A DNA stretch of 58,296 nt from Candidatus Eiseniibacteriota bacterium (GCA_030613615.1 JAUWLR010000001.1:1-58296), one strand, 5' to 3'. Shown: positions 37,349 through 56,057, counted from the stretch's first letter. A program made the numbers and translations. Notes: a model not told the origin generated them from the letters alone.

Positions 37349-37378
37349 GAGTCGGATTGCCCTGGAAGGGGGGAAGCA

Positions 37379-38277: not shown

Positions 38278-38359
38278 CGTTCACCCGGGGCGCCCTCAGC
38301 GGGCTTCCGGAGACATCCCGTTCACCCGGGGCGTCCCCAGCGGGGTCCCGGAGATATCG
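38278..38359. repeat. Two tandem copies of a 41-bp unit immediately upstream of the giant gene
   Basis: cgttcacccggggcgccctcagcgggcttccggagacatcc / cgttcacccggggcgtccccagcggggtcccggagatatcg. About 35/41 positions are identical by hand alignment. The repeat ends 30 nt before ATG 38389. Confidence 0.7.
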
Positions 38360-38388
38360 CACTGGACACCATTCCTAAGGAAATCGAC

Positions 38389-41300: not shown

Positions 41301-43746
41301 CGCAGTCACGCTCTCGAACTACCAGACCTACGTTCTCAGGGCAGAAGGTCTGGCGCCTGCCCTCTCCGAAGGTGAAGCAGATCCCTCGCCGGCGCAGCCC
41401 GGGGACCTCGTCACATACACGGTCCAGGTCACGGACACGGGCGGGGGCGTCGGCGACGTGTTCCTCAACCTCTCGGACATTGGTGGTGACAGGTTCGTCC
41501 GGATGACGGACGACGGGGTCGATCCGGATGCAGCCGAGGGCGATGGCGTGTACACGACCTCAGAGGTGCTTTCCTCCTCCGCATCCGACGGCGATCACAC
41601 GGTCACGGTCACCGCTCGCGACGGGGAGAACATCGCTGCCGCCACGCTGGACATCGACATCAACGCGAACAACCCCGCGACCGCGATCCGCCAGTTCGAC
41701 GACCCGGAGTTCGACGACCACGGGCCGAACGGGGGAACTGATCATCCCGGCGAACAGATCGAGGGACTCTACTACAGGTACCCGACGAATCTCGTGTTCC
41801 TTCCGGGGTCTTTCGACATTACCGGGGTGGAGATATTCGCGGACGGCGACCGCATCGTCTTCCGCACGCACATTCGCGACCTGGTCTATCATCAGGACCC
41901 GTCGGCCGCGGACTGGGGTGCGCCCCAGCCGAGCCAACAGACGTGCGACAACCCCAATCGGACCGACCTCAACCTGCAGAAGCTCGACATCTATATAGAT
42001 GCGTATGAAGGAGAGGGCGCGACCAGCGGTTTCCCGAACAGGTACGTCGATATCGCGACAGTCGACGCCTGGGACTACGGTATCTCTGCCGAGGGCTGGG
42101 GCAAGTGGTTCGTCGTCTCGAACAGCTCAAACTCCACGGCGAGCTGGGACCTCTACAAGAACGACAGCGACATCTCAATGTGTGACGACCACATCGAGAA
42201 CTACATCGACGTCAGCATCGACCGCGCGCTGCTCGGGCTTGACCCGGACAACACGGACAACGACGACATCCTGTCCTGGGACATCATCGTCTGCCTGTCG
42301 TCGCACGATGGCGAGACGAACGACCAGAATCTCGGAGGGATCCGCTGGGTCAACGGCACCACCAGCGAGTGGCAGATCGGCGGCGGTCTGGACAGCGAAG
42401 GGGGGAGGGACAGGGACCCCAACATCATTGACGTAGCGATCTCGCCCGGTGAAGGACACGAGCCCGGGCGGACCCAGGAGGAGATGCTCGACTACACCAC
42501 CACGGAGGCGGAGGCTAGGTTCGACAACAACCGGGTGGCGTGCGTGCTCGAAGCTAGCTTCGCCGTCGACACCGCACCGCCAGTCATCTACGACTTCACG
42601 AGCGACCCCGAACTCGCGTTCATCCCGTGGGTGGCGCTGGACGGCGCTCCAGCCGTCATGTGGACGACCATCACCGACGTTACCGGCATCGAGACCGCGC
42701 GCTTTCACTGGCAGCCCGTTGGACTTCCGACCTTCCGGGATTCGGTGGACATGGTCAACCTGATCGGCGACATCTGGGCGGCCGACATCCCGCGCGCCGA
42801 CGTCACGGCCGGCACGAACGTCGTCGGCCTGAACAAGGTGGGCGACGCGCGTGTGCTCGAGGGTTGGATCTACGCTGCCGACTCGTCGGAGGCCGAGAAC
42901 GAGATACAGAGCGCTCCCCTGACATTCGGCATCCCCGAGCCATGGGCGGGCTCGCAGACGCTCTCTCTACCCGACACACTGCATGAGAACGACGAACGTC
43001 TCCTCGTCTTCCAGGACGGAACCGTGCTGACGGTGGACGGCGGTGACCTGCCGGGCGAAGGCGGCGCCATGGAGCTCACCGTCACTCCCATATCTGAGAG
43101 TCTGGTGGACGTCTCCGATATCCGTGACGACATGGAGTTCGTCAGCGTCGCCAGAGACCTGGCGGCGCAGTACGCGGACGGGACGGCCGTGTCGCTCGTC
43201 GGGAAGCCGAGTCTGACACTGCACTACCCGCAGTACGAGGTAGGAGGGCTCGACGAGGAGGACTTCGGCCTGTTCGGGTGGATCCCGGAGACGGAGCGGT
43301 GGATTCTCAAGGGAGGCGCCGGCAATCCTCCCGGCAACACCGTGACCGGGGAAATACTCGACTTCGGCACCTACGGCATCTTCTACTGGGAGGCGCTGGA
43401 CGTGGGTTCCGCGAGAGGGCTGTCGGGCGTGCTGACCGAGCCGAATCCATTCTCGCCCAACGGTGACGGGCTATACGACGAGACCGTTGTCACGTTCTAC
43501 CTCGGCCGCGAGGCCGACTACGTCAACATCGAGTTCTACGACCTCGAGGGCCGGCTGGCCCGCAGGCTCGTGTTCAAGGGACCGACCGACTACATGGGGC
43601 GATCCCAGCATACCATGACCTGGGATGGAACGGACGTGGACGGCAACGTCGTGCCATACGGCATATATGTGATGCGTGTTGAGGCAAGGTTCAAGACCGA
43701 ACCGACGTTCGAGCGAGTCAACAGACCCGTCGTTGTCATCAAGTAG
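38389..43746 (+). CDS. Giant (1785 aa) secreted multidomain surface protein with glycan-binding-type modules and a FlgD-Ig/CHU_C-type C-terminal sorting domain
   Basis: Signal peptide 'AVAVLLLLVAASALS'. Two CBM9/DOMON-like modules ('TIDGRV...DLWVTWDETNLYFGV'; 'LTVLRITNSADELIVGLIF'). CarboxypepD_reg-like units ('YEIERLAPGIYDVKT'). Big-like units ('ISGQLVDASSN','LSAQVVDAWGNN'). Glucodextranase-C-like module 'DDPEFDDHGPNGG...YYRYPTNLVFLPGSFDITGVEIFADGDRIVF'. Tail 'NPFSPNGDGLYDE...WDGTDVDGNVVPYGIYVMRV'. I recognise no catalytic domain. Confidence 0.85.
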   Translation: MRRYAAAVAVLLLLVAASALSNSYNRPTIDGRVTTLEGDWESDEWVGRDPRDDCRHYPDQGDLRDLWVTWDETNLYFGVRTVNGPADNGYVLYIDEDAQEGITGATDFTSAAFYPRRVTFSTMGVDAIFGVWKLEPGTEGIRHCDDLSVMSPIEGAYAQMNPGIKHYEGVIPWDGLYGLGEGVVPEGTILRFVAAVVGVDNTGAFDALPTTTSGMESDPSTPDGAYTDLDLFIEIPVDTDEDGVPDTNYPPGGSISGTVALGDTTDHETVVTVTAYQGGEAIWSDRTPAGGGEYEIERLAPGIYDVKTNAFSYLPVTIEGVAVADTSETAGINFLLEKVTGRVEGEVVLDGGPAVDVTVGVYDATTGEMGGEGEVVVEGGTGAFSIGTVLDGTWLVLAEGKGYVEADTMATITDGDTTNVGLLTLPVVVATKYGFSDSLGNSIYGAGTTVSLPDSGIYYYARAWVEPRDDGDRVAYWDYDAQGGIVLSATKLDPAYDPTGTVVLADTSEVPLPDATLTSDMFDDGRAPFLTADDAIEVVRVFATNAALRDTLQGVLEVGIAPPAPVRLALSTDVSTIAAGVGVATISGQLVDASSNAAKVPGIIANMTAWGAGGGFSVPSPETDADGKFAVDFSGTVTGTAYVSAAIDPGSAYPNLEVDELTIVLEPDVAAFVEIEPDPRALRAGDLSTLSAQVVDAWGNNVALGDLSIALVASPPLLLASIDSPIVTDGTGWATGEIEAGSTYGTVEISGAATGVEVETIYVPIDATVRAMDEVAPETDPDHNSDPGMDLTVLRITNSADELIVGLIFDSEWNGAHLGICIEANGDAAGAPAEPFRFPITYGHALLPDYAFTYKFYDQSYADFRRWNVGAGAWQFLDWDTDSWVNEDAWVIGVEAQDGQMDRDQWDVYFRIPFSTIGVSVGDTVRVQGYTMQEVPGDPDAVKYTALDSTPHDATHDMLPDVGDWWETATDAVTLSNYQTYVLRAEGLAPALSEGEADPSPAQPGDLVTYTVQVTDTGGGVGDVFLNLSDIGGDRFVRMTDDGVDPDAAEGDGVYTTSEVLSSSASDGDHTVTVTARDGENIAAATLDIDINANNPATAIRQFDDPEFDDHGPNGGTDHPGEQIEGLYYRYPTNLVFLPGSFDITGVEIFADGDRIVFRTHIRDLVYHQDPSAADWGAPQPSQQTCDNPNRTDLNLQKLDIYIDAYEGEGATSGFPNRYVDIATVDAWDYGISAEGWGKWFVVSNSSNSTASWDLYKNDSDISMCDDHIENYIDVSIDRALLGLDPDNTDNDDILSWDIIVCLSSHDGETNDQNLGGIRWVNGTTSEWQIGGGLDSEGGRDRDPNIIDVAISPGEGHEPGRTQEEMLDYTTTEAEARFDNNRVACVLEASFAVDTAPPVIYDFTSDPELAFIPWVALDGAPAVMWTTITDVTGIETARFHWQPVGLPTFRDSVDMVNLIGDIWAADIPRADVTAGTNVVGLNKVGDARVLEGWIYAADSSEAENEIQSAPLTFGIPEPWAGSQTLSLPDTLHENDERLLVFQDGTVLTVDGGDLPGEGGAMELTVTPISESLVDVSDIRDDMEFVSVARDLAAQYADGTAVSLVGKPSLTLHYPQYEVGGLDEEDFGLFGWIPETERWILKGGAGNPPGNTVTGEILDFGTYGIFYWEALDVGSARGLSGVLTEPNPFSPNGDGLYDETVVTFYLGREADYVNIEFYDLEGRLARRLVFKGPTDYMGRSQHTMTWDGTDVDGNVVPYGIYVMRVEARFKTEPTFERVNRPVVVIK

Positions 43747-43759
43747 CAAGGACCTGTCT

Positions 43760-44641
43760 ATGTTGAGAACCACGGCAAGCACGGTCGTCGCACTCCTTCT
43801 TCTTGCCGGGGCGGTTCAGGCGAACTTCCTCGAGACGGAGCTTGGGGCGAGAGCGATGGGTATGGGCGGCGCCTTCGTGGCCGTCGCGGACGACGTCACT
43901 GCGCTGCACTGGAATCCGGCGGGGCTGGCAGGACTGCCTGGAGTTCAGGTCTTCGGAATGCGGACCAGCGTCTACAGCGTCGACGGTCTGTCGGAGGACG
44001 CGGTTCTGACGTCGTATGGAACGGGAAGCATGGGGTACGGCCTGGGGTGGATGAGAACGGGGGCGGCGGACCTCTACAGCGAGGACACGCTCCTGGCGGG
44101 CTACGGTACGGAAACGCCGATCGACGGCCTGGCCGCGGGCATTACGCTCAAACGTTTCTCCGTCGAGGCGCCTGGATACGAGTACTACAACGACCCGGCG
44201 TTCGCCGCGGGCGGCGACGACGCCTACGCCGCCGACCTGGGCGCACTCTATCGACGTGGGAAGTGGAGCGTCGGCGCCACGGTCAGGAATCTGGGAGAGC
44301 CCAAGCTGCAGCTGCTTTCCACGACCGCGGAGGAGGACCTCGACCCGATAATGAGCGAGCTGCGCCTCGGCGGGACATACCTGTTCCGCGACGTCATGCT
44401 GATGACGGTCGAGTGGCGCGCGCCGAGGGAGGCCCCCGAGTACTACGAGAACCAGTACAGCATCAATTTGGGGAGCGAGGTCTGGTTCTACGATGCCTTC
44501 GCATTGAGAGCGGGCATGAACCGCGACAGGATCACCGCGGGGCTGGGCATAAGGACGAAGCACATTCAGATAGACGTCGCCCTGCTGTCGGAGCGGAGGA
44601 TCGGGAGTCTCTACAGGTTGTCGGCGATCTTCCTGTGGTAG
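43760..44641 (+). CDS. PorV/PorP-SprF-like outer-membrane beta-barrel
   Basis: Signal peptide. 'GARAMGMGGAFVAVADDVTALHWNPAGLAG' is the hallmark N-terminal motif of PorV/PorQ/UPF0164-type barrels. Alternating beta pattern. C-terminal 'LSAIFLW'. Confidence 0.7.
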   Translation: MLRTTASTVVALLLLAGAVQANFLETELGARAMGMGGAFVAVADDVTALHWNPAGLAGLPGVQVFGMRTSVYSVDGLSEDAVLTSYGTGSMGYGLGWMRTGAADLYSEDTLLAGYGTETPIDGLAAGITLKRFSVEAPGYEYYNDPAFAAGGDDAYAADLGALYRRGKWSVGATVRNLGEPKLQLLSTTAEEDLDPIMSELRLGGTYLFRDVMLMTVEWRAPREAPEYYENQYSINLGSEVWFYDAFALRAGMNRDRITAGLGIRTKHIQIDVALLSERRIGSLYRLSAIFLW

Positions 44642-44714
44642 GAGGGTTGCGGCAGGGGGCCCCGCGAGGGGCGCCGCGCACTGACCGGCGTTACAGATTC
44701 CGAAGGAGCTTCCG

Positions 44715-46310
44715 TTGGTTCGAACCAAGAGAATAAGAGGTCGCCACCTCTCGGTCCTCCTGCTCGCGAGTCTGATGCTCGCGTCGTGGGTCGCTCCCGC
44801 CTCAGGCATAACGACCCTGGACGGCTACTCCTCGTTCATGGCCGAGCTTCGGAACAGCGGTGGAGGAGACCCCAGCTGGGAGCTCGGCAATCCTGAGCTC
44901 CTGGTTGAGTTTCGTCTCAAGTCGAGCCCGTGGCAGGACATCGACAGCTTCCTGAAGGTCGCGGGGGAGTCGGACACGTGGGTGGATCGGGGCGAGGATG
45001 AGGTGGTCAAAGAGACGAAGTTCTTCTTCCAGGAGGCACACGTCCGGTTCCGCGCGAGCAAGTTCGAGACGCACCTCTTTGCGGGGCAGGACAGGTTCTG
45101 GCTGAACGAGCCGCTGCTGCAGATCGTGCACTCGGACCAGGTGAAGCACGACGACTGGGGCCCGAAGGCGCAGGGAATCAGGCTCGACTTCTGGGACCTC
45201 TACGGATTCTCGGGCGCGGCCTTCGTGAGCGAGAGGAGCGACTACAAGTTCATGGACTGGGCGAGGCTCTCCTCGGCCGAGCAGGGGTACTATCCGGGTT
45301 CGGCGGAGGGCGACACGATCACGAGCAGCACCTCCGACTATCGCGGCTTCAGGGTCAACAGGGCGCTGCTGTCCGATCAGTTGCACGTCGGGACGACCTA
45401 CGCGCGGAAGGACTACGAGGATCTCAACTCGCCCTACTGGGGCGATCGCAGCTTCTTCGACGAGACCATCGCCTTCGACATCGAGATGGCCTTGGGCGAT
45501 ATCGTGCCCGCGCTGACGCGCTTAGGACGTGTCACGTGGGTCTCCGAGTACGGCCGGACACTGTCGGGGCATCTGTGGACCGCTGAGGACCCGGGCGTCA
45601 ACGGTTTCAAGACGGAGGTCAGGGATGTCCGCGTGGGGCCCTTGAGCTTCATGGGTTCCTGGGAGGCGTACGGGAAGGACTTCTACAATCAGGGTCTGGC
45701 GCACGGCGACCAGCAGAACCTCAACGACTACACGCAGTACTACGCCGAGGGGCACTACCGCATTCCCGCCAAGGCCGTCAACCTCAAGGGCTGGGTCAAG
45801 CGCGCCGAGCCCCGGAGTTCCGTGTCGACCAGCTACGCCCGGTCGACGGGCATCATCGCCGAGTGGGGGAGCGAGGCCTACATCGAGTTTCTCAACGGAT
45901 TCACTGGCAAGACGGAGTACAAGGTCTACCGGAACAAGAGCGGCATCTGGCCGAACCTCTTCTTTGAGCTGACCGGTGAGAACCGACTGGTCAAGCTTCG
46001 CACGCAGTTCCGCATCAAGGACATCGACTCTGACTACGAGGTGACCGCGTACGGCTTCGAGGCCAACGTCAACCTGAGCGACGTCTGGAAGTTCTACGCG
46101 CGAGTGATGAATATCGATGAGGCCACCGAGTCCAGGCAGACCGCTTTCGCGCAGCTCAGGTACCTGGGGTGGCAAAGCGCCGAGTTCTTCGTCGAGTTTG
46201 GCAACCCGGACCACAGCAACGACCTGGTGAACGACGACGACTTCGCAACGCACGGCTCGAACGCGATCACGGAGCCGGTGTTCAAGGCGTTCGTGAGGAT
46301 CTACTACTAA
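44715..46310 (+). CDS. Predicted outer-membrane beta-barrel of an unrecognised family
   Basis: TTG start 6 nt after GAAGGAG. Signal peptide 'LLLASLMLASWVAPASG'. Amphipathic beta-strand periodicity throughout. Terminal 'FKAFVRIYY' (aromatic beta-signal). Paralogous blocks shared with 46395-48476. Confidence 0.6.
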   Translation: MVRTKRIRGRHLSVLLLASLMLASWVAPASGITTLDGYSSFMAELRNSGGGDPSWELGNPELLVEFRLKSSPWQDIDSFLKVAGESDTWVDRGEDEVVKETKFFFQEAHVRFRASKFETHLFAGQDRFWLNEPLLQIVHSDQVKHDDWGPKAQGIRLDFWDLYGFSGAAFVSERSDYKFMDWARLSSAEQGYYPGSAEGDTITSSTSDYRGFRVNRALLSDQLHVGTTYARKDYEDLNSPYWGDRSFFDETIAFDIEMALGDIVPALTRLGRVTWVSEYGRTLSGHLWTAEDPGVNGFKTEVRDVRVGPLSFMGSWEAYGKDFYNQGLAHGDQQNLNDYTQYYAEGHYRIPAKAVNLKGWVKRAEPRSSVSTSYARSTGIIAEWGSEAYIEFLNGFTGKTEYKVYRNKSGIWPNLFFELTGENRLVKLRTQFRIKDIDSDYEVTAYGFEANVNLSDVWKFYARVMNIDEATESRQTAFAQLRYLGWQSAEFFVEFGNPDHSNDLVNDDDFATHGSNAITEPVFKAFVRIYY

Positions 46311-46394
46311 CGGAAGAAAGCTGGGGCCGGTCGACCCGGTCCACGAGAATCGCTTGAGGGAGGCGTGATAGGCGCCCCATCCGGAGAAGAATCG

Positions 46395-48476
46395 ATGAAG
46401 CACAGAGGCATCGCACGTGTGGCACTCTTGGTAGCCGTTGCTCTTCTCGCAGCCGCGCCCGCGCGGGCCGGTGTGTCCAGGGTGGACGGTGGCATAGAGT
46501 TCACCTTCGACCACCCGAGCGCGGGCAGCGTGAGCCTGGCCGGCGACTTCAACGGCTGGGACATGAACGCCGAACCGCTCACTCAGGATGAAGACGGGGT
46601 CTGGAGGGTGGTTGTTGACCTGGGGCCGGGCGAGTACGCGTACAAGTTCGTCGTCAACGGCTCCGAGTGGATAGCCGACCCCGAGAATCCGAGGGTGGTC
46701 GGCGACTTCGGGAACTCAGGGATCACGATCAACGACGACGGCGATCCGGTGTCAGGAGAGGACGCGGACCCCATCTCGAATACGTCCGTGAACTCCAGGG
46801 TGCAGCTGAACGGCTGGTATCGGGCGACGTTCGACTGGCAGGCGGACATGCCGAGCGATTCCCGGTGGCGGCTCACCAGGCCGGCGCACGAGTTCTACAT
46901 CGCCGTCAATCCGACCGTGACGTCCGTTGCTTCCGGAAACGCCACGGTGCGCCTTTCGACGGGCGCCGGCGATATCAAGGAGATATCGGCCGACATCTAC
47001 AGCGGCCACCTCACGCTGGAGGGCGGCCCGTTTTCCGTGACGGGGTTCTACAACGAGGAACGGCTGCAGTACGATAACCCCCTCGAAACCGTGGGGCACA
47101 TCGACCTCGACAACACTATCCCCGAGGAGCACATCCCGTTCGGCAGGGGTGCGCAGGGCATCATGGTCGACACGGAGTTCTGGGACTTCACGCTGAACGC
47201 CGCATACGCAAACATCTACGACTACTACATTATGAACGACCCGAGCGTATACGACAACACGGAGACCGATCTCCTGGCCGCGCGTCTCAAACGGCCCGTC
47301 GGTCCAGTGACGCTCGGAGCGACGTACACGAGCTGGAGAGACAGCTGGTGGATAGGCTTCGAGGGCACGAACACGAGCCCCCACATCGACCAGTACCTCG
47401 CTGACAATCCCGAGTCTCAGAGCAGCTGGTTCGAGCTCTCCAACACCGAGACCTGGATCGGCTTCGACGCCGACATGCCCGTCGTGAGTGACCTGCTCTA
47501 CGCAAAGGCCGAGTACTCACTCTACAGCTACGACAGCCTCTTCGACGTGGGCAACAAGGAGAGGATCGAGGGCGAGGACTACTCAAACGGCGCGATCAAT
47601 GTCCCCGTCGGCAGCATGGATGGCTGGGTCGCGACGGGCGTCCTGGAAAGCTCACCGCTCCCGTACCTGGACCTGAGATTCCAGGTCACGAAGACCGCGA
47701 TCGACTCCATGAGCTCGGGTGAGCAGTACGTGGCCTACGGCTTCCCTTCCTGGCTGGCCATATGGGAAGGCGTGTTCACCGAGGTCAAGGGCACCGGTTC
47801 GCCGCTCTCGGTGAACGTCTTCGGTCAGGCGCCGGAGCGGGACGAACTCGAACTCAAGTTCGACGCCGACTTCGGGTTCGGCATCTTCGACGTGGGATTC
47901 GAGTACGACCGCGCCGACTTCGAGTGGCGCTACCACGAGGAGATCGAAGGCCACTTCGGTTCATTCGACACCTGGAAGGAACGCATCTCGAGGCTTTCGG
48001 TGACCGGCGGAGCAGACGTAGCCGAGAGAATTCGCGTCGGTTTCGCCACCGAGCGGATCTCGGGCTACTACGACGTCGACTACCTCGAGGATCCGAGCAG
48101 ATTTGAAGCCATAGTGACCGCGGACGTCGGGCTCTGGCAGGACTGGAGCGTGCTGCTCGACGTCAGGAGCGCCTCGTATAAGAACATCCCACGCTTCGCA
48201 CAGTCGACTCCCGACTCGCTCCACTACGAGGACGAGGCTTTCCTGGCTCCGTACGTCGCCCTGGTCTACAGCCCGCGGGAGAACATCGAGGTCAGAGTGG
48301 GCTACGGTGTCAGCCCGACCAACTACGTGGACACGCCGGTCGAGGGCAGAGGGGACGGTCGCGGGCGGTGGGTCTCCGAGTACCTGTGGAACCGCAGCGA
48401 CCACGACGGCCTGGATGCCGAGAAGGCGCTGGCGGACGCTAAGACGATCGGTGTCATGGCGGTCATAACGTTCTAG
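46395..48476 (+). CDS. CBM48 (AMPK-beta/glycogen-binding) module fused to a predicted outer-membrane beta-barrel
   Basis: Signal peptide 'VALLVAVALLAAAPARA'. CBM48 'IEFTFDHPSAGSVSLAGDFNGWDMNAEPLTQDEDGVWRVVVDLGPGEYAYKFVVNGSEWIADPENP'. About 560 aa of beta-strand-rich sequence ending 'IGVMAVITF'. Confidence 0.7.
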   Translation: MKHRGIARVALLVAVALLAAAPARAGVSRVDGGIEFTFDHPSAGSVSLAGDFNGWDMNAEPLTQDEDGVWRVVVDLGPGEYAYKFVVNGSEWIADPENPRVVGDFGNSGITINDDGDPVSGEDADPISNTSVNSRVQLNGWYRATFDWQADMPSDSRWRLTRPAHEFYIAVNPTVTSVASGNATVRLSTGAGDIKEISADIYSGHLTLEGGPFSVTGFYNEERLQYDNPLETVGHIDLDNTIPEEHIPFGRGAQGIMVDTEFWDFTLNAAYANIYDYYIMNDPSVYDNTETDLLAARLKRPVGPVTLGATYTSWRDSWWIGFEGTNTSPHIDQYLADNPESQSSWFELSNTETWIGFDADMPVVSDLLYAKAEYSLYSYDSLFDVGNKERIEGEDYSNGAINVPVGSMDGWVATGVLESSPLPYLDLRFQVTKTAIDSMSSGEQYVAYGFPSWLAIWEGVFTEVKGTGSPLSVNVFGQAPERDELELKFDADFGFGIFDVGFEYDRADFEWRYHEEIEGHFGSFDTWKERISRLSVTGGADVAERIRVGFATERISGYYDVDYLEDPSRFEAIVTADVGLWQDWSVLLDVRSASYKNIPRFAQSTPDSLHYEDEAFLAPYVALVYSPRENIEVRVGYGVSPTNYVDTPVEGRGDGRGRWVSEYLWNRSDHDGLDAEKALADAKTIGVMAVITF

Positions 48477-48478
48477 CG

Positions 48479-49294
48479 ATGGAGGTTCGGAGGATCGTGA
48501 GAGAAACCACCAACAGACGGAGCCGCCGCGGGACGCTTCTGGTCGTGACGCTGGCGGTAGCACTGACGCTCAGCTCGTGCGCGGGCACACTGGACTGGAT
48601 ACAGGACCGGCTGCCACCACCGTCGGAAGTGGAAGGCGGGATCATGTTCCGCTACCACGCGCCGTCGGCGCGCCTGGTGACGTTGGCGGGCAACTTCAAC
48701 AACTGGGGCGGCACGCAGGGCGGCGGACGATACGACCCGAGCATCAATCCGATGAGCGACACCAACGGCGACGGCACGTGGACCCTCGTTGTTCCCCTTC
48801 CACCCGGTCGCTATCAGTACAAGTTCGTGATCGACGGTGGCGTGGGGTGGGAGCAGGACCCCAACAACCCCGACAAGGCGATGGAAGGCGGGATCGAGAA
48901 CTCGCTCGTCGTGGTTCCCCCGACGGTCTCGTACGATTTCGAGCACATCACGGGCACGGTCATTGGTGAGAGCATCAGAGAGGGACTGCTGAAGCGCCCG
49001 GGCGACGCGCCCACTGCAGCCGAGCCGACCGTGACCGCGGAAGGCGTGGAGTTCGAGGTCGATTTCCCGGATGCCGGCGCGGTCTATCTCGCGGGAACGT
49101 TCAACGACTGGGATCCGGACGCACACCCGCTAACGAAGGGTGACGATAGCCTGTGGCGGGTGACCATTGAGCTCGACCCGGGAGAGTATTTCTACAAGTT
49201 CGTCGTCGACGGCACATGGATGGAAGATCCGGGCAACCCGGAGAGCGTCGACGACGGCTACGGCGGCGTCAATTCAATCCTGACCGTTGAGTGA
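48479..49294 (+). CDS. Lipoprotein with two CBM48 glycogen-binding modules
   Basis: Lipobox 'LTLSSCAG'. 'MFRYHAPSARLVTLAGNFNNWGG...WTLVVPLPPGRYQYKFVIDG...WEQDPNNP' and 'VEFEVDFPDAGAVYLAGTFNDWDPDAHPL...WRVTIELDPGEYFYKFVVDGTWMEDPGNP'. Confidence 0.8.
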   Translation: MEVRRIVRETTNRRSRRGTLLVVTLAVALTLSSCAGTLDWIQDRLPPPSEVEGGIMFRYHAPSARLVTLAGNFNNWGGTQGGGRYDPSINPMSDTNGDGTWTLVVPLPPGRYQYKFVIDGGVGWEQDPNNPDKAMEGGIENSLVVVPPTVSYDFEHITGTVIGESIREGLLKRPGDAPTAAEPTVTAEGVEFEVDFPDAGAVYLAGTFNDWDPDAHPLTKGDDSLWRVTIELDPGEYFYKFVVDGTWMEDPGNPESVDDGYGGVNSILTVE

Positions 49295-49369: not shown

Positions 49370-49431
49370 ATCGGTTGGAAGCGGCCCCCTGATCTCTCGC
49401 GGGGGTCGGTGACAGGAGGCCGTGACCGCCG

Positions 49432-50430
49432 ATGCCACGCCACGATGGTCGGACGCGCAGGCACGAACGTCCTGGATCGGACGGGCCCGGTGTGAACCCG
49501 GGACCCAGGCCGCGTCTCTCCAGGCGAACGGGCGACTCGGCCACCTCCTACGCGTTTCTCGCGCCGTTCCTCATCACCTTCGCCGTCTTTCTGGCTTTCC
49601 CGGTCTTCTACTCGCTCTATCTGGCGCTGCACCAGGTGCCCGCTGACTCCTTCGACATATTCGGGGGGCTCGAGTTCGTCGCCTTCAGGAACTTCGCGAA
49701 GCTCTTCGCCGACACCAAGTTCTGGTGGTCGGTGCTCATGACTCTCTACTATGCGGCACTCATCATCCCAGCAGGGATAGTGGCGTCGCTCGTGCTCGCG
49801 CTCCTTCTCAACAACAGGCTCAGGTTGGTCGCGGCCTACCGGAGCGCGTTCTTCATGCCCTACGTGCTGGACATGCTGGTCGTGGGCATCGTCTGGACGC
49901 TGATATACAGCCCGCACGTGGGGATTCTCACGCGCATCTTCGAAGCAATAGGCATCACGACGTTCTCGGAGCGCGGGTTTCTGGGGATGCCCGCCTCCGC
50001 GATGCCGTCGGTCGTGTTCGCGAACGTGCTCAAGGGCGCGGGGTTCGGAATGATCCTGTACCTCTCGGCGATCCAGAACATCCCGCAGTCGCTGTACGAG
50101 GCCGCCGAGATCGACGGGGCCACGCCGTGGAAGCGCTTCACCTCGATAACGCTCCCGCTGGTGAAGCCCATCACACTCTTCATGGTCATCATAGGGACCA
50201 TCGGCGCCCTGAACGCGTTCGCCGAGGTCTACGCAATGACGGGCGGCGGGCCGAACATCGACGTCGGCGGCCGCGCGCTCGGGGCGACGTGGGTGACGGG
50301 GTACTACGTTTTCGACACGTTCTACACGCAGTTCAAGCTCGGATACGCCGCTGCGATGTCGTACGTGCTTCTGGCGCTCACGCTCATCATTTCGCTCGTC
50401 AACAGGCGCTTCCTCAGGGCGGAGGTGTAG
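49432..50430 (+). CDS. ABC carbohydrate transporter permease (CUT1, MalF/UgpA-like)
   Basis: Six hydrophobic segments. EAA loop 'EAAEIDGATPWKRFTSITLPLVKP'. GTG 49492 is an alternative start. Confidence 0.85.
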   Translation: MPRHDGRTRRHERPGSDGPGVNPGPRPRLSRRTGDSATSYAFLAPFLITFAVFLAFPVFYSLYLALHQVPADSFDIFGGLEFVAFRNFAKLFADTKFWWSVLMTLYYAALIIPAGIVASLVLALLLNNRLRLVAAYRSAFFMPYVLDMLVVGIVWTLIYSPHVGILTRIFEAIGITTFSERGFLGMPASAMPSVVFANVLKGAGFGMILYLSAIQNIPQSLYEAAEIDGATPWKRFTSITLPLVKPITLFMVIIGTIGALNAFAEVYAMTGGGPNIDVGGRALGATWVTGYYVFDTFYTQFKLGYAAAMSYVLLALTLIISLVNRRFLRAEV

Positions 50431-50432
50431 AG

Positions 50433-51260
50433 GTGGCACGCACGCGCGCGGCGGTTCTCAGGAGGACGCTTCTCTACACCGGCCTGACGGTCGCGGCGAT
50501 CGTAGTGCTGTTCCCGTTCTTCTGGATGGTCGTGACGGCGTTCAAGGAACCGGGTCAGGCCTTCAGCCAGGAGATTCTTCCCTCCAGTCCGACGCTCGAG
50601 AACTTCAGGCGCGTCCTCACCGACTACGGGTTCGCGCGCTACTTCGTGAACAGCGTCGTCGTGGCGACCTCGGCCGCGCTTTTCGCGACGTTCTTTGCCA
50701 CGATGGCGGGCTACGTCTTCGCGAAGAAGGAGTTCATCGGGCGTGACAAGGTGTTCGGGTTTCTGCTCGCGTCGCTCATGATCCCCGGGATGATGTACGT
50801 GGTGCCGCAGTTCGCGATTATCAACTGGCTCGGGTGGATGAACAGCTACAAGGCGATGATCATCCCGCACCTCGCGAACGTCTTCGGCCTCTTCCTGATG
50901 AGACAGTACATGATGACCATCCCCTCGGAGCTTCTGGAGGCGGCCAAGATCGACGGTGCGGGGGAGTGGCAGGTCTTCAGGACCATCATGGTGCCGCTGT
51001 CCATCCCGATCATCGCGACGCTCTTCCTGCTGACGTTCCAGTTCCACTGGAACAACTTCCTCTGGCAGCTCATAGTGACGAACGTCGAGCGCCTCTACAC
51101 CGTTCCGGTGGGGCTCGCGATGTTCAAGAGCGCGCACGAGGAGTTGTACACATTGAAGATGGCAGGTTCGTGTATCTCTGTGCTGCCGATCGCCGCTCTC
51201 TTCTTCTTTGCTCAGAGGTACTTCATTGAGGGGATGACGATGGGGGCGCTCAAGGGTTAG
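50433..51260 (+). CDS. ABC carbohydrate transporter permease (CUT1, MalG/UgpE-like)
   Basis: GTG start 2 nt after the upstream stop. 'LFPFFWMVVTAFK' and EAA loop 'EAAKIDGAGEWQVFRTIMVPLSIP'. Confidence 0.85.
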   Translation: MARTRAAVLRRTLLYTGLTVAAIVVLFPFFWMVVTAFKEPGQAFSQEILPSSPTLENFRRVLTDYGFARYFVNSVVVATSAALFATFFATMAGYVFAKKEFIGRDKVFGFLLASLMIPGMMYVVPQFAIINWLGWMNSYKAMIIPHLANVFGLFLMRQYMMTIPSELLEAAKIDGAGEWQVFRTIMVPLSIPIIATLFLLTFQFHWNNFLWQLIVTNVERLYTVPVGLAMFKSAHEELYTLKMAGSCISVLPIAALFFFAQRYFIEGMTMGALKG

Positions 51261-51311
51261 GCAGCGGAGCGCGGCCGGACGAGCGGGAGCTCGAAGCGAA
51301 AGGGAACAGAC

Positions 51312-52550
51312 ATGAGAAGAACGCTGTCTATAGGAGGGGCGCTTCTGGTAGCGTGCGCGTTTGCGCTCTTGGCCGGCTGCGGAGGAGGGCAGGACGCCGC
51401 CGCGACACTTACGATCTGGCAGACTTACAATGACGAAGAGTATCCGGTCTTCAAGGAGATCGTCGAGAGCTTCAGAGCGGCGCATCCGGACATCACGATC
51501 GACGTGGTCAGGCTCCCCTTCGCCGGCGCCGAGCCCAAGATCCAGACGGCTCTCACAACGCGCACCGAGCCCGACATCGCAAGGGTGGACGTCTCGTTCC
51601 TGGCGAAGCTCGCGGGCAAGAACGCGCTTCTCGACCTCGGTCCGTACATCCCTTCTGAGTTCCGCGACGAGATCCTCCCCGTGGCGCTCTCGAGCTGCTA
51701 CTACGACGACACGCTGTGGGGGCTGCCGGACCAGACCAACGGTCTCTGCCTCTTCTATAATAGAGAGCACTTCCGCAGTGCCGGGTTGGACCCCGAGCGT
51801 CCCCCGGTGACGTGGGACGAGCTGATATCGTACGGGAGGAAGCTGACGAACAGGGACGAGGGTGTCTTCGGCATCGGCCTCTCCAACTCGCTCTGGTGGA
51901 CGCTCCCGTTCTTCTACACGCACGGCGCCGATTTTCTCTCCGAGGATGGCACGCGCTGCGTGCTGAACAGTCCCGAGGGTATCGCCGCATTCCAGCTCAA
52001 GGTGGACCTGTACCAGAAACACGGCATCGAGGGTGGCGCGTGGCGCGCGGGCGGCATCATCCATGACCTGGGTTTCCAGAACGGACGATACTCGATGATC
52101 CTGAACGGGCCCTGGGCCGTAGAGAGCCTCAAGCGCACGGGCATCGATTTCGGGGTCGGTCTGATTCCCGCGGGACCGGTCGGTACGGCGACCAACGTTG
52201 GCGGGAACAATCTGGTCGTGTTCAGAAGCACGAAGCGGCCCGAGCTCGCCTCCGAGTTTCTGCGGTTCGTGGCCAGCGAGGAGACGCAGCGCATGTGGGC
52301 GTCGAGGCTCGGCCAGATCCCGGTGAACGTCAAGGCCTCGGACGCCATCACGTCCGAGGAGCATCCGTACCTCGCCGTCTTCGTCGAGCAGATGGAGACA
52401 GCGATCCCGCGCCCGCAGGTGATGGGCTACCCCGAGATCGAGAACCTGATGAATCCGGAGATGCAGGCCGCTCTGGACGGCACAAAGTCAGTTGAGGCGG
52501 CGCTCAACTCCGCCGTCGCGGAGATAGACAAACTGCTCGCGAGCGATTAG
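51312..52550 (+). CDS. ABC transporter extracellular solute-binding lipoprotein (family 1, sugar)
   Basis: Lipobox 'ALLAGCGGG'. 'LTIWQTYNDEE','GLPDQTNGLCLFYN','NGPWA' are typical of MalE-like sugar-binding proteins. Confidence 0.85.
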   Translation: MRRTLSIGGALLVACAFALLAGCGGGQDAAATLTIWQTYNDEEYPVFKEIVESFRAAHPDITIDVVRLPFAGAEPKIQTALTTRTEPDIARVDVSFLAKLAGKNALLDLGPYIPSEFRDEILPVALSSCYYDDTLWGLPDQTNGLCLFYNREHFRSAGLDPERPPVTWDELISYGRKLTNRDEGVFGIGLSNSLWWTLPFFYTHGADFLSEDGTRCVLNSPEGIAAFQLKVDLYQKHGIEGGAWRAGGIIHDLGFQNGRYSMILNGPWAVESLKRTGIDFGVGLIPAGPVGTATNVGGNNLVVFRSTKRPELASEFLRFVASEETQRMWASRLGQIPVNVKASDAITSEEHPYLAVFVEQMETAIPRPQVMGYPEIENLMNPEMQAALDGTKSVEAALNSAVAEIDKLLASD

Positions 52551-52602
52551 ATTGTGAGCGGTGAAACCATCCGGCATCAGGCAGAGCGCGGCCCGGGCCG
52601 GA

Positions 52603-52659
52603 CAGACGCACACGGGTGGACAGGCGCACACGGGTGGACAGACGCACACGGGTGGACAG
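52603..52659. repeat. 18-bp tandem repeat, about 3.2 copies (cagRcgcacacgggtgga)
   Basis: Copies at 52603, 52621 and 52639, with one A/G difference. They lie in the spacer between the binding-protein gene and the next gene. The track ORF start at 52616 ('MDRRTRVDRRTRVDR') is just this repeat translated. Confidence 0.85.
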
Positions 52660-52714
52660 AACTGAGACGAAACTTAGGGAACGCTCAGGCGTTGCTGCAT
52701 CCAAGGGGGCAGAT

Positions 52715-53491
52715 GTGAAGCTGTTGCGCGGGGCTGTTGTGCTCCTTGCGTTTCTTGCCGTCGCGATTCCGGCGGTGGCCGAGGAACTGGCGAGATGGGA
52801 CGACCCGGTCGGAGACGACACCGGTGACGGGGACTACACGTATCCTCTGAACGAGGCGTTTGGAGAGGGTGGACAGGCGGACCTTCTGTCGTTCGCGATC
52901 GAGAAGGAGAACGGTTCGCTGATCTTCGAGCTCACGATACGCAACCTCGTCGACCCGTGGAACGTCGGCAACCGGCTGACCATGGTCGCGGTCGCCATCG
53001 ACACGGAGGAGGGCGGCGACGAAGAGCTTCGGCGCAACGCGAACGCGCGTCTGGCCGAGCCGTCCGAATATCAGATCTTCGTGGCCGGAGAGACCGTGGA
53101 GGTCATAGACATGTACGCCGAGCGTGTTGACATCGGCGCGAGTGTCGAGACGGACATGGAGAAGGGCACCATCAGAATAAGTGTTCCGATCGACGCCCTC
53201 GACGGCGCGGCGGCCGACTGGCGATTCACGGTGGCGGTCGGGCTTCAGGACGACTACGGCGCCGGGGGGTTAGGTGACTTCCGCGAAGTCAAGAAGGTCG
53301 AGGAGGAGTGGCGGGGCGGCGGCGGTGACGACCTGTCGCTCGATACGAATGTGTACGACATCATTGTGCCCGAGCCGAAGAAGATCCTCTTCATCTTCGG
53401 CGGGGGGCAGAGGTCGCAGGAAGAGATTCTGGGCGACTGCAGCCTGGAGACCGGTGAGCTGGTAGTACTCCCGGCTCTGGCACTGGAATAG
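52715..53491 (+). CDS. Secreted protein consisting of a glucodextranase C-terminal-like (Glucodextran_C) module
   Basis: GTG after AAGGGGG. Signal peptide 'AVVLLAFLAVAIPAVA'. 'WDDPVGDDTGDGDYTYPLNEAFGEGGQADLLSFAIEKENGSLIFELTIRNLVDPWN' parallels the module in the giant protein. Confidence 0.65.
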   Translation: MKLLRGAVVLLAFLAVAIPAVAEELARWDDPVGDDTGDGDYTYPLNEAFGEGGQADLLSFAIEKENGSLIFELTIRNLVDPWNVGNRLTMVAVAIDTEEGGDEELRRNANARLAEPSEYQIFVAGETVEVIDMYAERVDIGASVETDMEKGTIRISVPIDALDGAAADWRFTVAVGLQDDYGAGGLGDFREVKKVEEEWRGGGGDDLSLDTNVYDIIVPEPKKILFIFGGGQRSQEEILGDCSLETGELVVLPALALE

Positions 53492-53524
53492 AGCGGACAG
53501 AAGACTCGCAGGGCTTCTCATCGG

Positions 53525-53551
53525 TCGCCCGGCGGCTGCATGGCCGGGCGA
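53525..53551 (+). terminator. Hairpin downstream of 52715-53491
   Basis: tcgcccggc / gccgggcga forms a 9-bp stem with a 9-nt loop. No U-tract. Confidence 0.35.
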
Positions 53552-53918
53552 GCGGTGCATCTGGGGGAGCACCGGTGGCCCGCGGCGTGGCGAGCATCGT
53601 CAACGTGCTTGACGCCCTAGAGCGGCTAACGAGCCGAAAGGCTCGCCTCACGGGCGACGGTGGGCATGGCAGCGAAGTTGCAGTTGCACAGGAGACGCCG
53701 CGATCAGAGACCCGAAAGAGACATCAGGCTCGCAGAGGCTGCCGCTGAAGGGATACCGCCGGGGACTGCAGATAGTCGTCGGCGCCCGCGAGACTCGCGA
53801 GTACATCCTCACCAACAAAGAGAAGGCGTACTTCGCCGGTGAGACGGGCACGACGAACACGAGGAGCTACGAGGGCCTCATCGTCGAGCTTCACAAGTAC
53901 CTGGAGGGTTGGGACCTC

Positions 53919-56057
53919 GTGCTGGGCGACGTGCCGCTCTCCTCGTGGGGCCTGAAGAGCGCCTGCGTCCTGCCCCAGAGCGTCACGCGCGAGTACGTCA
54001 TCGAGCAGACGACAGAGACCGTCTTCCTGGCGGACCGGGAGAACATCCTCCTGGTGTCGTACAGCTCCAACCACTCCGGGCGCGCGGCCTTCGAGCCCAG
54101 GATCGACATCAGGAGCATCTGGGAGGAGGGCCAGCCCGAGTACGAGACCCGCTGGGACGAGAACCGGCGCGTACTCGCCCTGAAGCGGGTGGATCATCCC
54201 AAGCGGACCGAGGAGCAAGACTACCCCGTGTGGGTCGCCGTTGCGTGCGACCGCCCGGCGGAGTTCGTCCCTCGCGAGGCCTACAGGAAGACCACCTACA
54301 CCAAGGACGCGGCGCGAAGGGCCATGGCTTCCGCGATTCCCTACTCCCCGGGGAAGCTCGAGTTCGCGTTCGAGAGCGGCGCGGGTTTCGCGGGGAGCGT
54401 CACCTTCTGCGTGGCCGTCGGGGACACTCTGGCCGAGGCCTCGGAGCTGGCGCTCAGGGGTCTTCTGGACGAGTTCACGCTCTACGACGATAAGATGAGG
54501 AGGACGGCCGATCTCCTTGATCGTGTCGGCATCGCCGCGCACGACAACGACTACCGGCTGGCACTTCAGTGGGCCGCGGCGTCGGTGGACGCGCTCATCA
54601 TGAATCAGCTCGGCCGGGGCATCTTCGCCGGTCTGCACTGGTTCCCGAACTACTGGGGACGAGACACGTTCATCGCCCTTCCCGGGGCGTGTCTCGTGCG
54701 CGGTGAGTTCGACACAGCCAGAGAAATCTTAGAATCGTTCGCCGCGCTGCAGGAAACGGACGAGGGCAGTCTGCTGTTCGGGCGCATTCCCAATCTCGCG
54801 ATGCCCGGCGATGTCTACTACAACACGGCCGACGGGACATGGTGGTTCGTCCGCGAGGCGTACGAGTACCTGAGATACACCGGTGACCTTGAGTTCGCGG
54901 AGCGGTTCTTTCCTGTCATCGAGCGGGCGATCGACGGCGCGCTCGCGCGCAGGACGGACGCCGACGGATTCCTGCTGCACGGTCAGGCGGAGACCTGGAT
55001 GGACGCCGGCGGGGAGGAGAACCCGTTCTCGCCCCGGGGCAACCGGGCGGTCGAGGTAGAGGTCCTGTGGCACACGGCCCTTCTCTCCGGAGCGGCCATC
55101 GCGGATGCACTGGGCAGGGAGGAGCCGGCTTCCAGGTGGCGTGAGGTCGCCGGGCGCGTCGGAGATGCGTTCGCTCGTGAGTTCCCCGATCCGGATACGG
55201 GCGGCCTCTTCGATCACCTCGACCCCGACGGCGCGCCCGATCGGCAGATCCGACCGAACCAGGTACTCGCAGCGACCGTGCCGTGGAACGACCTGCTCCC
55301 GCGCGAGACCGAAAGGGCAATGCTCGAGCTGGTCCGGGAGACCTGCGTGCTGAGACACGGTGTCACGTCGCTGCATACGGAGGACCCCAACTTCCACCCG
55401 TGCCACCTCGACCTGGAGCGATATCACTTCGACGAGGCTTATCACAACGGCGACGTGTGGGTGTGGCTGACCGGACCCGTGGTGTCCGCTCTTGTGAAGC
55501 ACGGGCAGGTCGGCGCCGCCTGGGAGCAGACGTCGGTTCTCACGGATCTCGTGTTCGACGAGGGCGCGGCGGGCACTCTCCCCGAGCTTCGAAACGGCGT
55601 GCCCCCGGAGTACGGAGAGAACGTGGCGGGCGCCGTGTCGCAGGCGTGGAGCCTCTCCGAGTTCCTCAGGAACTTCTATCAGGACTACCTCGGCGTGCGC
55701 CCCAACGTCCTCGAGGGGACGGTTGATATCAGGCCCGCACTCCCGCCATCCTGTAGCTGGCTGGCCGCCCCCGTCCGGGTGGGCGAGGGATCTCTCTTCG
55801 TGCTGCATCGCGTGGACGCCGAAAGCGAGCGGGCCTGCACGAGGGTCGTCGCTGACGGCGATGCGCCGCCTCTTACCGTCCGATTCACTCCCCGCGTGCC
55901 CCCCGGGGCCGACGTCCAGGAAGAGGGGGAGACCATCGAGACGGTCCTGGAGCCAGGTGGCGGGGTCAGGTTCACCGTCGAGAAGCACGCCGGGAAGTGG
56001 GAAACCCGACTGGCCGATGCGGACGAGAGTTCCCCGTGCGCGGGTGAGCTGCCGTGA
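53919..56057 (+). CDS. Glycogen-debranching-enzyme-type amylo-alpha-1,6-glucosidase (GDE_N + GDE_C); true N-terminus unresolved and lies upstream of 53919
   Basis: 'GLHWFPNYWGRDTFIALPGA' (GDE_C), 'YHNGDVWVWLTGP'. No signal peptide. The same frame is open from 53613 and encodes 'REYILTNKEKAYFAGETGTTNTRSYEGLIVE' (GDE_N-like) but contains no ATG/GTG/TTG. Confidence 0.85.
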   Translation: MLGDVPLSSWGLKSACVLPQSVTREYVIEQTTETVFLADRENILLVSYSSNHSGRAAFEPRIDIRSIWEEGQPEYETRWDENRRVLALKRVDHPKRTEEQDYPVWVAVACDRPAEFVPREAYRKTTYTKDAARRAMASAIPYSPGKLEFAFESGAGFAGSVTFCVAVGDTLAEASELALRGLLDEFTLYDDKMRRTADLLDRVGIAAHDNDYRLALQWAAASVDALIMNQLGRGIFAGLHWFPNYWGRDTFIALPGACLVRGEFDTAREILESFAALQETDEGSLLFGRIPNLAMPGDVYYNTADGTWWFVREAYEYLRYTGDLEFAERFFPVIERAIDGALARRTDADGFLLHGQAETWMDAGGEENPFSPRGNRAVEVEVLWHTALLSGAAIADALGREEPASRWREVAGRVGDAFAREFPDPDTGGLFDHLDPDGAPDRQIRPNQVLAATVPWNDLLPRETERAMLELVRETCVLRHGVTSLHTEDPNFHPCHLDLERYHFDEAYHNGDVWVWLTGPVVSALVKHGQVGAAWEQTSVLTDLVFDEGAAGTLPELRNGVPPEYGENVAGAVSQAWSLSEFLRNFYQDYLGVRPNVLEGTVDIRPALPPSCSWLAAPVRVGEGSLFVLHRVDAESERACTRVVADGDAPPLTVRFTPRVPPGADVQEEGETIETVLEPGGGVRFTVEKHAGKWETRLADADESSPCAGELP

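Follow-up and report, generated by a model that had tools for sequence, protein, structure and literature searches.

The stretch of DNA considered here, which we refer to as the window, comprises 58,296 nucleotides from an uncultured sediment bacterium (Candidatus Eiseniibacteriota bacterium, GCA_030613615.1 JAUWLR010000001.1:1-58296). Ten closely packed genes, designated G1 to G10 and all oriented in one direction on the plus strand, occupy positions 38389-56057 of this window and appear to constitute a locus for the capture and import of alpha-glucans. A preliminary description of the same DNA had recognized the common orientation and tight spacing of these genes and had counted eleven of them; a search of the interval 53491-53766 for an eleventh gene yielded only short open reading frames (ORFs), none of which was supported, and the count now stands at ten. 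The predicted products (Table 1) are a giant secreted protein (G1), an outer-membrane barrel of the PorV/PorP type (G2), two further beta-barrels (G3 and G4), a lipoprotein made of carbohydrate-binding modules (CBMs) of family 48 (G5), two permeases and a binding protein of an ATP-binding cassette (ABC) importer (G6, G7 and G8), a small secreted protein (G9) and a cytoplasmic enzyme of the glycogen-debranching (GDE) type (G10). Glycan-utilization loci are in themselves a known type of gene cluster, and what is new in this one is its outer-membrane apparatus. Our survey of the literature found no published description of the locus or of a fusion between a CBM and a barrel, and the genome paper on the Effluviviacota lists merely the counts of glycoside hydrolase (GH) families GH13 and GH57 among starch-related carbohydrate-active enzymes.

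The proteins were scanned against Pfam and NCBIfam at the curated cutoffs (the local copy of Pfam being one without PF27098), and relatives of the locus were collected as 20-kb loci by scanning one genome per species, which yielded 52 loci (numbered with the prefix L where they need to be told apart). G3 exhibited no match in Pfam, in NCBIfam or in a profile search of the PDB sequences, and the same PDB search with G4 returned matches to its CBM48 only and none for its barrel, the remaining ~560 residues of this protein being without a family match. AlphaFold2 models, which were built from alignments of 49 sequences for G3 and 47 for G4 and whose strands were read from DSSP strings, predict that both proteins fold as beta-barrels and not as soluble proteins. 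The G3 model is a barrel of ~24 strands without a plug (predicted local distance difference test score, pLDDT, 85.9), and the G4 model consists of a CBM48 sandwich, a flexible linker of ~22 residues predicted with low confidence, and a barrel of ~22 long strands (pLDDT 84.5). The C-terminal residue is aromatic in G2, G3 and G4. Although BLASTP relates G3 to G4 with an E-value of only 7e-5, hhalign aligns the first ~200 barrel residues of the two at a probability of 96% and an E-value of 1.6e-9, and on these profiles G3 and the G4 barrel are distant paralogues. The earlier proposal of two paralogous barrels, the second of them with an N-terminal CBM48, is thus borne out; the CBM48 (CBM48/AMPK1_CBM profiles) is present at the N-terminus of 47 of 47 G4 orthologues.

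Table 1. Features of the alpha-glucan locus and its immediate surroundings, in window coordinates
Feature	Position	Strand	Basis and remarks
G0, SIR2-family deacetylase	37379..38182	+	Pfam SIR2, E 4e-49; conserved upstream neighbor (context)
G1, secreted multi-module protein, 1785 aa	38389..43746	+	Signal peptide, Glucodextran_C, C-terminal sorting/anchor domain
Glucodextran_C module of G1, residues 1100-1373	41686..42507	+	PF09985, 102 bits, E 3e-29
C-terminal domain of G1, residues ~1685-1785	43441..43743	+	FlgD_ig / CHU_C (like the type-B C-terminal domain of type IX secretion)
G2, outer-membrane barrel resembling the PorV/PorQ/PorP superfamily	43760..44641	+	NF033709; signal peptide; C-terminal W
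G3, outer-membrane beta-barrel, 531 aa, ~24 strands	44715..46310	+	AlphaFold2 model; no Pfam/NCBIfam match
G4, signal peptide + CBM48 + linker + ~22-strand barrel, 693 aa	46395..48476	+	Hidden Markov model and AlphaFold2 model
CBM48 module of G4, residues ~27-112	46473..46730	+	CBM_48 and AMPK1_CBM, E ~2e-10
G5, lipoprotein with two CBM48 modules	48479..49294	+	AMPK1_CBM, E 9e-24, two stretches; lipobox LSSC
G6, CUT1-type ABC permease, MalF/UgpA-like	49432..50430	+	BPD_transp_1, E 2e-15
G7, CUT1-type ABC permease, MalG/UgpE-like	50427..51260	+	BPD_transp_1, E 1e-18
G8, lipoprotein solute-binding protein of CUT1 importer	51312..52550	+	SBP_bac_1, E 4e-40; lipobox LAGC
G9, small secreted Glucodextran_C protein	52718..53491	+	PF09985; ORF opens at 52616, likely start GTG at 52718
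GH57 deletion scar	53554..53570		~2.56 kb of L005 missing; GGGAGC microhomology
G10, cytoplasmic GDE_C / GH133-type amylo-alpha-1,6-glucosidase-like protein	53766..56057	+	GDE_C, 224.8 bits, E 2e-66
G11, membrane protein	56054..58222	+	Two N-terminal transmembrane helices; weak VWA_2/CARDB; locus membership uncertain

Comparison of the models with the structures in the PDB by Foldseek revealed a resemblance to outer-membrane barrels that is generic for both proteins (template modeling, TM, scores of 0.3-0.5 at 7-11% identity). TonB-dependent transporters (TBDTs) head the matches of G4, which also include AlgE and maltoporin, and G3 is matched best by PapC and FimD, usher pores of 24 strands (TM 0.4-0.5, 7-9% identity). 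When G4 was tested as a maltoporin, it gave no match to the LamB family of Pfam, and its structural match to 1MPR (TM 0.33/0.48, 9% identity) is of the same generic kind. Its membership among the TBDTs was also considered and rejected, since the PF00593 matches, which are weak and occur in 9 of the 47 orthologues, reach at most 27.5 bits and lie out of register, and no plug domain (PF07715) or TonB box was found in G4. By these comparisons the two barrels belong to no characterized porin or TBDT family, as had been suspected. The G3 family is rare, with only 144 of the 1.84 billion cluster representatives belonging to it. One of its members (P0172) has a precomputed match to PF27098, the family absent from the local copy of Pfam, and a distant G3-like barrel of 698 aa (P0252) carries a CsgG-like N-terminal domain, from which it would seem that this barrel family accepts N-terminal fusions other than CBM48.

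The connections between the strands alternate in length in both models: the even-numbered ones are short (at most 4 residues, and all of 2-4 residues in G4), and the odd-numbered ones, which include the tips of very long hairpins, extend to as many as 46 residues. In outer-membrane barrels the periplasmic turns are short and the external loops are long. Because this odd/even pattern puts the start of the first strand at the periplasmic face, the N-terminus of G4, and hence its CBM48, most likely resides on the periplasmic face of the modeled barrel or in its lumen, and not on the cell surface. The suggestion that the CBM of the channel captures glucan at the surface is therefore probably wrong in this detail.

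The CBM48 assignments themselves are above the curated thresholds (41 bits in G4; 84 and 69 bits for the two modules of G5), as are those of Glucodextran_C (in G1 and G9), GDE_C, SBP_bac_1 and BPD_transp_1 discussed below. G5 had been described as a lipoprotein composed of two CBM48 modules, and this description holds; its LSSC lipobox is kept in orthologues and its modules align to the glycogen-binding domain of AMPK beta1 (1Z0M). The residues of AMPK beta1 that contact glycogen, which we take to be W100, K126, W133 and N150, have aligned W, K, W and N counterparts in all three CBM48 modules of the locus (two in G5 and one in G4), and in the G4 family the corresponding W55, K84, W92 and N107 are invariant across 47 sequences. 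To judge from these alignments, the three modules keep their predicted sugar-contacting residues.

G1 is composed of CarboxypepD_reg-like, Big_1-like Ig, unassigned beta-rich and Glucodextran_C modules, followed by the C-terminal sorting or anchor domain. Its Glucodextran_C module is present in 12 of 12 orthologues and matches residues 727-1000 of glucodextranase 1UG9 by profile. In the tail, the FlgD_ig profile scores 27.0 bits at a cutoff of 27 (11 of 12 orthologues) and CHU_C scores 17.9 bits, also at a cutoff of 27 (10 of 12 orthologues); neither TIGR04183 nor TIGR04131 is matched by the window copy of the protein. The CHU_C, CarboxypepD_reg and Big_1/Invasin_D3 modules remain below threshold in the window copy and are detected in 10-12 of the 12 orthologues, at best E-values of 2e-7, 6e-12 and 5e-14, respectively. 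The motif PNPFSPNGDG (columns P1685-G1694) is invariant in the tail, and a majority of the orthologous tails have precomputed matches to both PF13585 and PF13860. The parts list drawn up in the preliminary description is thereby confirmed for the length of the protein (1785 aa), its predicted secretion and its Glucodextran_C module, and through the orthologues for the CarboxypepD_reg and Big modules as well; the tail is probably of the FlgD_ig/CHU_C type that had been listed. The CBM9/DOMON-like modules that were also listed find no support from hidden Markov models in G1 or in 11 orthologues and were rejected. No catalytic domain was detected in G1 by Pfam, orthologues included, or by the PDB profile search.

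The two ends of G1 evolve differently. Its N-terminal ~1100 residues are 48-86% identical to those of locus L005, the nearest relative that has the GH57 gene, as compared to 90-95% for Glucodextran_C plus the tail, and window positions 38537-41389, which encode ~1000 residues of the N-terminal part, have no megablast alignment to L005 between flanks that are 90-92% identical. The distal part of G1 might thus be hypervariable or recombining, and the faster evolution expected of a surface-exposed protein would fit this pattern; the dN/dS of G1 is 0.23-0.28. Two orthologues of 2200-2300 aa (L028, 722-7609, and L037, 2484-9098) possess an extra N-terminal copy of a conserved module, 'DEAAPESDxxHNS...', which in the window G1 lies at about residues 770-990.

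G2, which directly follows G1, had been called a PorV/PorP-like barrel, and it does resemble these proteins: it matches NF033709 (PorV/PorQ) at 83.7 bits and an E-value of 1.7e-23, which is below the cutoff of 90 bits, and all of the 14 orthologues tested match the same profile (best E-value 5.7e-26). The PorP_SprF profile gives 21.7 bits against a cutoff of 22.3, and a match to FadL is weaker than that to NF033709. In Bacteroidota, proteins with type-B C-terminal domains (CTDs) are held at the cell surface by a PorP-like barrel that is encoded adjacently, as in the pairs PG1035-PorP and SprB-SprF (PMC9143113). By analogy, G1 and G2 look like a type-B CTD cargo protein and its PorP-like anchor. 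As in the known pairs, a very large protein with a CHU_C-like tail is encoded directly upstream of a barrel that resembles the PorV/PorQ/PorP superfamily (PMC9143113), but here the scores are at or below the cutoffs, the lineage lies outside the Bacteroidota and the pair is situated inside a glycan-uptake locus. A search with the G1 tail alone for other classes of cargo returned only fragments of G1 orthologues. Elsewhere in the window, a subtilase (Peptidase_S8, 8504-10222) ends in a FlgD_ig domain (31.9 bits), the same kind of tag as that of G1, which suggests that this type of tail might be a general secretion or sorting tag in the host organism.

The importer has the composition of a CUT1 system, with two BPD_transp_1 permeases and a family-1 binding protein (SBP_bac_1) that carries a lipobox, so that the two permeases and the lipoprotein predicted earlier correspond to G6, G7 and G8. 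G6 matches UgpA, GlcT and MalF below cutoff, G7 matches GlcU, UgpE and MalG, and G8 exhibits weak similarity to GanS, MalE and UgpB. G9 is the small secreted second copy of Glucodextran_C that had been noticed, with PF09985 E-values between 4.5e-37 and 7e-37. In G10 the match to GDE_C (PF06202) covers profile positions 12-367 of 367. This protein resembles the archaeal-type GDE enzymes (GH133) in having a full GDE_C domain, but reaches 170 bits against the TIGR01561 (gde_arch) profile, for which the cutoff is 364.

The cytoplasmic GDE-type enzyme had been assigned correctly, and the correction that it requires concerns its start, which we place near 53766 and not at 53919. Alignment with homologues runs from residue 1 of the longer protein, so that coding sequence precedes the first canonical start codon by ~150 nt, and a dN/dS of 0.09-0.10 over the full 763 codons shows the N-terminal extension to be coding. 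The codon at 53766 is CTG in the window, ATG in one relative and CTG, CTA or CTC in the others (aligned to window 53745-53925), and the start context common to the relatives is GGGG(A), then six nucleotides, then ATA or ATC. The GDE gene probably starts at a non-canonical codon, either the CTG or the ATA/ATC. Downstream, the gene for the membrane protein G11 begins before the GDE gene has ended, with an overlap of 4 nt at the stop codon.

Homologues of G3 and G4 were encountered almost only in metagenome-assembled genomes (MAGs) of Candidatus Eisenbacteria/Effluviviacota, the most distant loci being in MAGs that are labeled Krumholzibacteriota or Fibrobacteraceae, or are unlabeled. Every one of the 52 loci with recovered flanks shows the genes in the succession G1-G2-G3-G4-G5, even where identity has fallen to 26-30%; this bears out the expectation of synteny and puts the grouping of these five genes far beyond chance. 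The core almost always adjoins genes for alpha-glucan enzymes (CBM48-GH57, GH13, CBM20 or GDE). In most Eisenbacteria loci it is followed by the ABC importer, G9, a CBM48-GH57 enzyme and the GDE, and in the most distant loci one finds a GH13 amylase with three CBM48 modules or a CBM20 protein, together with proteins that end in FlgD_ig or Por_Secre_tail. The GH57 proteins of the relatives bear a Sec signal peptide and are flanked by CBM48 and/or Glucodextran_C; they have no lipobox and no C-terminal sorting domain, and their closest solved relative, over the whole catalytic domain, is the GH57 amylopullulanase 8ZYI/9IHT (E ~1e-76). GH57 and Glucodextran_C are fused in one distant clade, and in another the Glucodextran_C is the separate protein G9, a pattern of fusion and splitting that ties G9 to the GH57 enzyme. 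The clade with the fusion (L001, 16110-19136; L040; L042) has a different CUT1 importer beside the core, arranged as solute-binding protein, permease, permease and only 25-33% identical, as compared to 52-69% in another clade whose core is equally diverged. These identities indicate a non-orthologous replacement of the importer at the same position, and since a different CUT1 importer stands beside the same core, the association of this core with the import of sugar has outlasted the replacement of the transporter.

The window itself encodes no GH57 catalytic domain anywhere in its 58 kb, and tblastn with the GH57 proteins of two relatives matched only CBM48 and Glucodextran_C regions. It had been stated that the locus contains no recognizable GH13; the lack of an extracytoplasmic glycoside hydrolase holds for the window and has to be amended for the group, most members of which have the GH57 enzyme. 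By blastn, window positions 52618-53570 correspond to 17863-18814 of L005 (90-93% DNA identity) and window positions 53554-53768 to 21371-21587. The 2.56-kb segment of L005 between them (18815-21370), which holds exactly the CBM48-GH57 gene, is missing from the window, and in the junction alignment the deletion coincides with a microhomology, GGGAGC. GH57 is lacking in the same way from L006, L007 and L048, which represent at least three diverged lineages, and in an independent assembly, L057, that is 99.7% identical. As read from these alignments, the absence of the hydrolase is a secondary, clean deletion of GH57 in this lineage, and the deletion accounts for the hydrolase missing from the window.

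Glycans are known to cross the outer membrane of Gram-negative bacteria through specific porins of small size (LamB, ChiP and CymA, for example) or through TonB-powered transporters of the SusC type, and the locus shares features with both of these without conforming to either. With the Bacteroides SusCDEFG system and Sus-like polysaccharide utilization loci it has in common a set of genes devoted to one glycan, surface glycan-binding proteins, an outer-membrane barrel and trimming in the periplasm or cytoplasm; the starch-binding-module lipoproteins SusE/F may be compared to G5, and both groups of bacteria belong to the FCB superphylum. The TonB-dependent SusC/SusD pair is absent, as had been noted before: the SusC-type plug (PF07715) was found in none of the ten proteins, and no locus protein matches the SusD family at an E-value of 0.1 or better. 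Unlike Sus, the locus has a CUT1 ABC importer for uptake across the inner membrane, and its outer-membrane components are two undescribed barrel families, one with a fused CBM, plus the PorV/PorP-like barrel; the enzyme of the relatives is a GH57 and not a surface GH13 like SusG. The LamB and MalE-MalFGK2 system of E. coli offers a parallel for TonB-independent, passive passage followed by a periplasmic binding protein and CUT1 import, G6, G7 and G8 being distant relatives of MalF, MalG and MalE. LamB, however, has 18 strands as compared to the ~24 and ~22 of G3 and G4, with structural similarity confined to TM 0.33-0.48, and it has no tethered CBM, CBM lipoprotein or giant surface protein. 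TonB-dependent transporters are known for maltodextrins as well, as in MalA of Caulobacter, and G4 is similar to this class in its ~22-strand barrel that follows an N-terminal globular domain and in its top Foldseek matches, but a CBM48, joined to the barrel by a flexible linker, stands at its N-terminus in place of a plug and TonB box. The GH57 enzymes of the relatives, which the window no longer has, differ from the amylopullulanases 8ZYI/9IHT in their signal peptide and their CBM48 and Glucodextran_C flanks.

We judge it probable on balance that the ten genes constitute a TonB-independent, non-Sus locus of the Eisenbacteria/Effluviviacota for the acquisition of an alpha-glucan of the glycogen, starch or pullulan type. 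The alpha-glucan reading of the preliminary description thus receives computational support from the domains, the folds, the synteny and the alpha-glucan enzymes of the relatives, and it is strengthened in particular because most relatives carry a CBM48-GH57 enzyme with a signal peptide and the distant ones a GH13 or CBM20 protein. What has been computed here are the identities of the domains, the folds, the conservation of binding residues, the synteny, the associated enzymes and the selection on the genes; from these we infer the localization, the substrate, the channel function and the order of events as follows. G1 would be exported and displayed at the surface by way of its CHU_C/FlgD_ig-type tail, where it would be held by G2 in the way that PorP holds PG1035 and SprF holds SprB, and its long Ig-like stalk would present the Glucodextran_C and the unassigned beta-modules, which would bind the polymer. 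Glucan chains or dextrins might then cross the outer membrane without TonB through the plug-less G3 and/or G4, for which a channel role is presumed. The incoming chain would be bound at the periplasmic face by the G4-tethered CBM48 and by the two modules of G5, which would retain it and give directionality to the passage without TonB; the periplasmic site is assigned to them because of the barrel topology and because no surface-export tag is present. In most relatives the Sec-exported CBM48-GH57 amylopullulanase would cut the chain, together with G9 or fused to its Glucodextran_C module. In the window, as a consequence of the deletion of GH57, the chain would have to be cut by enzymes whose genes lie elsewhere, unless the use of glucan is confined to short dextrins. 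G8 together with G6 and G7 would import the oligosaccharides, and the GDE_C (GH133) domain of G10 would remove the alpha-1,6 branches in the cytoplasm.

A more elaborate version of this scheme can be put forward only tentatively. In it, G3 and G4 represent a new class of TonB-independent glycan translocon through which chains are threaded, the CBM48 modules act as a gate for the pore and, purely by binding, as a ratchet that draws the polymer inward, whether they are stationed at the exit on the periplasmic side or lodged in the lumen as plugs that can be removed, and a scaffold of T9SS (type IX secretion) type on the PorV/PorP-like barrel feeds the channel.

Several observations weigh against alpha-glucan acquisition by this route. 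No ABC ATPase was found in the locus or in the window; CUT1 systems commonly share ATPases, and the ATPase for this one is presumably encoded elsewhere. A search for T9SS core genes (SprA/Sov, PorK/L/M/N and PorU), limited to the 58-kb window, found none. The scores of the G1 tail and of G2 are at or slightly under the curated cutoffs, and G1 contains no module of proven alpha-glucan binding, its Glucodextran_C being labeled 'SLH-like' by Pfam. The side of the membrane assigned to the CBM48 of G4 rests on a strand count from DSSP strings. As modeled, the barrels might be open, but their long loops might equally close them or the CBM48 might plug them, and a plug-less pore of 22-24 strands would need gating of some form. 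Finally, the window is without an extracytoplasmic glycoside hydrolase, and its GDE gene is without a canonical start, there being no in-frame ATG, GTG or TTG between the upstream stop codon and 53919.

Alternatively, the outer-membrane proteins might constitute an apparatus for surface display, in which G2, G3 and G4 are a dedicated platform, or a translocon of the usher kind, by which G1 is exported and anchored, the CBM48 modules help to keep glucan close to the cell, and the sugars enter through unrelated general porins prior to import by the ABC system. The genes G1 to G5 are an invariant core, in contrast to the importer and the enzymes, which change position, are exchanged or disappear; usher pores are the structures that G3 matches best, and G2 resembles the anchors of the PorV/PorQ/PorP superfamily. 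We nevertheless regard this arrangement as unlikely: the Foldseek similarity is generic at 7-9% identity, with neither the plug nor the periplasmic domains of the ushers, G1 is already provided with a PorV/PorP-like partner of its own, and the succession of a CBM48-barrel fusion, a CBM48 lipoprotein and an importer is explained more simply as a substrate path. The glucan might also be one that the cells make themselves, in which case the locus would anchor, remodel or recycle an alpha-glucan capsule or S-layer-like coat, with G1 as the coat protein, Glucodextran_C as its wall-binding module and the CBM48 modules bound to the cell's own glucan. The SLH-like label fits such a role, as do the presence of a cluster for exopolysaccharide (EPS) or capsule biosynthesis upstream (10386-32968) and of the S-layer barrel complex of Deinococcus (8AGD) at rank 33 among the Foldseek matches of G4. 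It is made improbable by the lack of any glycosyltransferase (GT), synthase or exporter in the locus, by the binding protein, which such a transporter needs for import and which identifies it as an importer, and by the catabolic nature of the recurrent partners (GH57, GH13 and GDE); moreover, the EPS cluster is not syntenic in the relatives, where Fer4_5 and SIR2 genes are the neighbors, and a link of the glucan locus to this cluster was rejected on that ground.

The clean deletion of the GH57 gene, taken together with the start of the GDE gene, could alternatively mean that the window locus is a relic of the system present in its relatives. Ten intact ORFs and dN/dS values of 0.07-0.31 across all of the locus genes, including 0.13-0.25 for G9 and 0.09-0.10 for the GDE among the GH57-less lineages, point instead to purifying selection on every gene, and decay of the locus was rejected on these values. 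L006, L007 and L048 share both the GH57-less arrangement and the non-canonical GDE start context. For these reasons we consider a relic the least probable of the alternatives.

If the acquisition of alpha-glucans is the correct explanation, the locus would represent a third design for the passage of glycans across the outer membrane, based on large plug-less barrels, a CBM within the channel protein, a lipoprotein consisting only of CBMs and an anchor, of the kind used in secretion systems, that holds a giant capture protein. The Eisenbacteria/Effluviviacota are widespread, uncultured and frequently encountered in cold seeps and hydrothermal sediments, and the locus would then explain how they can feed on glycogen- or starch-like necromass. 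Three protein families to which no function is assigned at present would also acquire one.

Fer4_5 and SIR2 genes (36392-38182) lie directly upstream of G1 in the window; SIR2 occupies this position in most relatives, at 66-94% identity in those that are closer, and L003 and L004 have Fer4_5 as well. On the other side, G11 follows the locus in relatives even when the GDE and GH57 genes are lacking (L028 and L033). Scans of the sequence for promoters and terminators gave counts equal to those of shuffled sequence, and searches for Rfam families and tRNAs found none. The EPS cluster farther upstream is large and encodes a flippase, a phosphodiesterase, a PGA_cap protein, Wzy, two GTs of family GT4 and a WecA-like GT, as well as a Wza-like exporter with five SLBB domains (13466-16585), a heparinase II/III-like protein (25228-26970), a UDP-GlcNAc 2-epimerase, a DegT aminotransferase and a C5-epimerase-like protein. 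Near the beginning of the window, two convergent and apparently paralogous sensor kinases (2509-4956 on the plus strand and 4962-7640 on the minus strand) each combine FG-GAP repeats with a HATPase_c domain.

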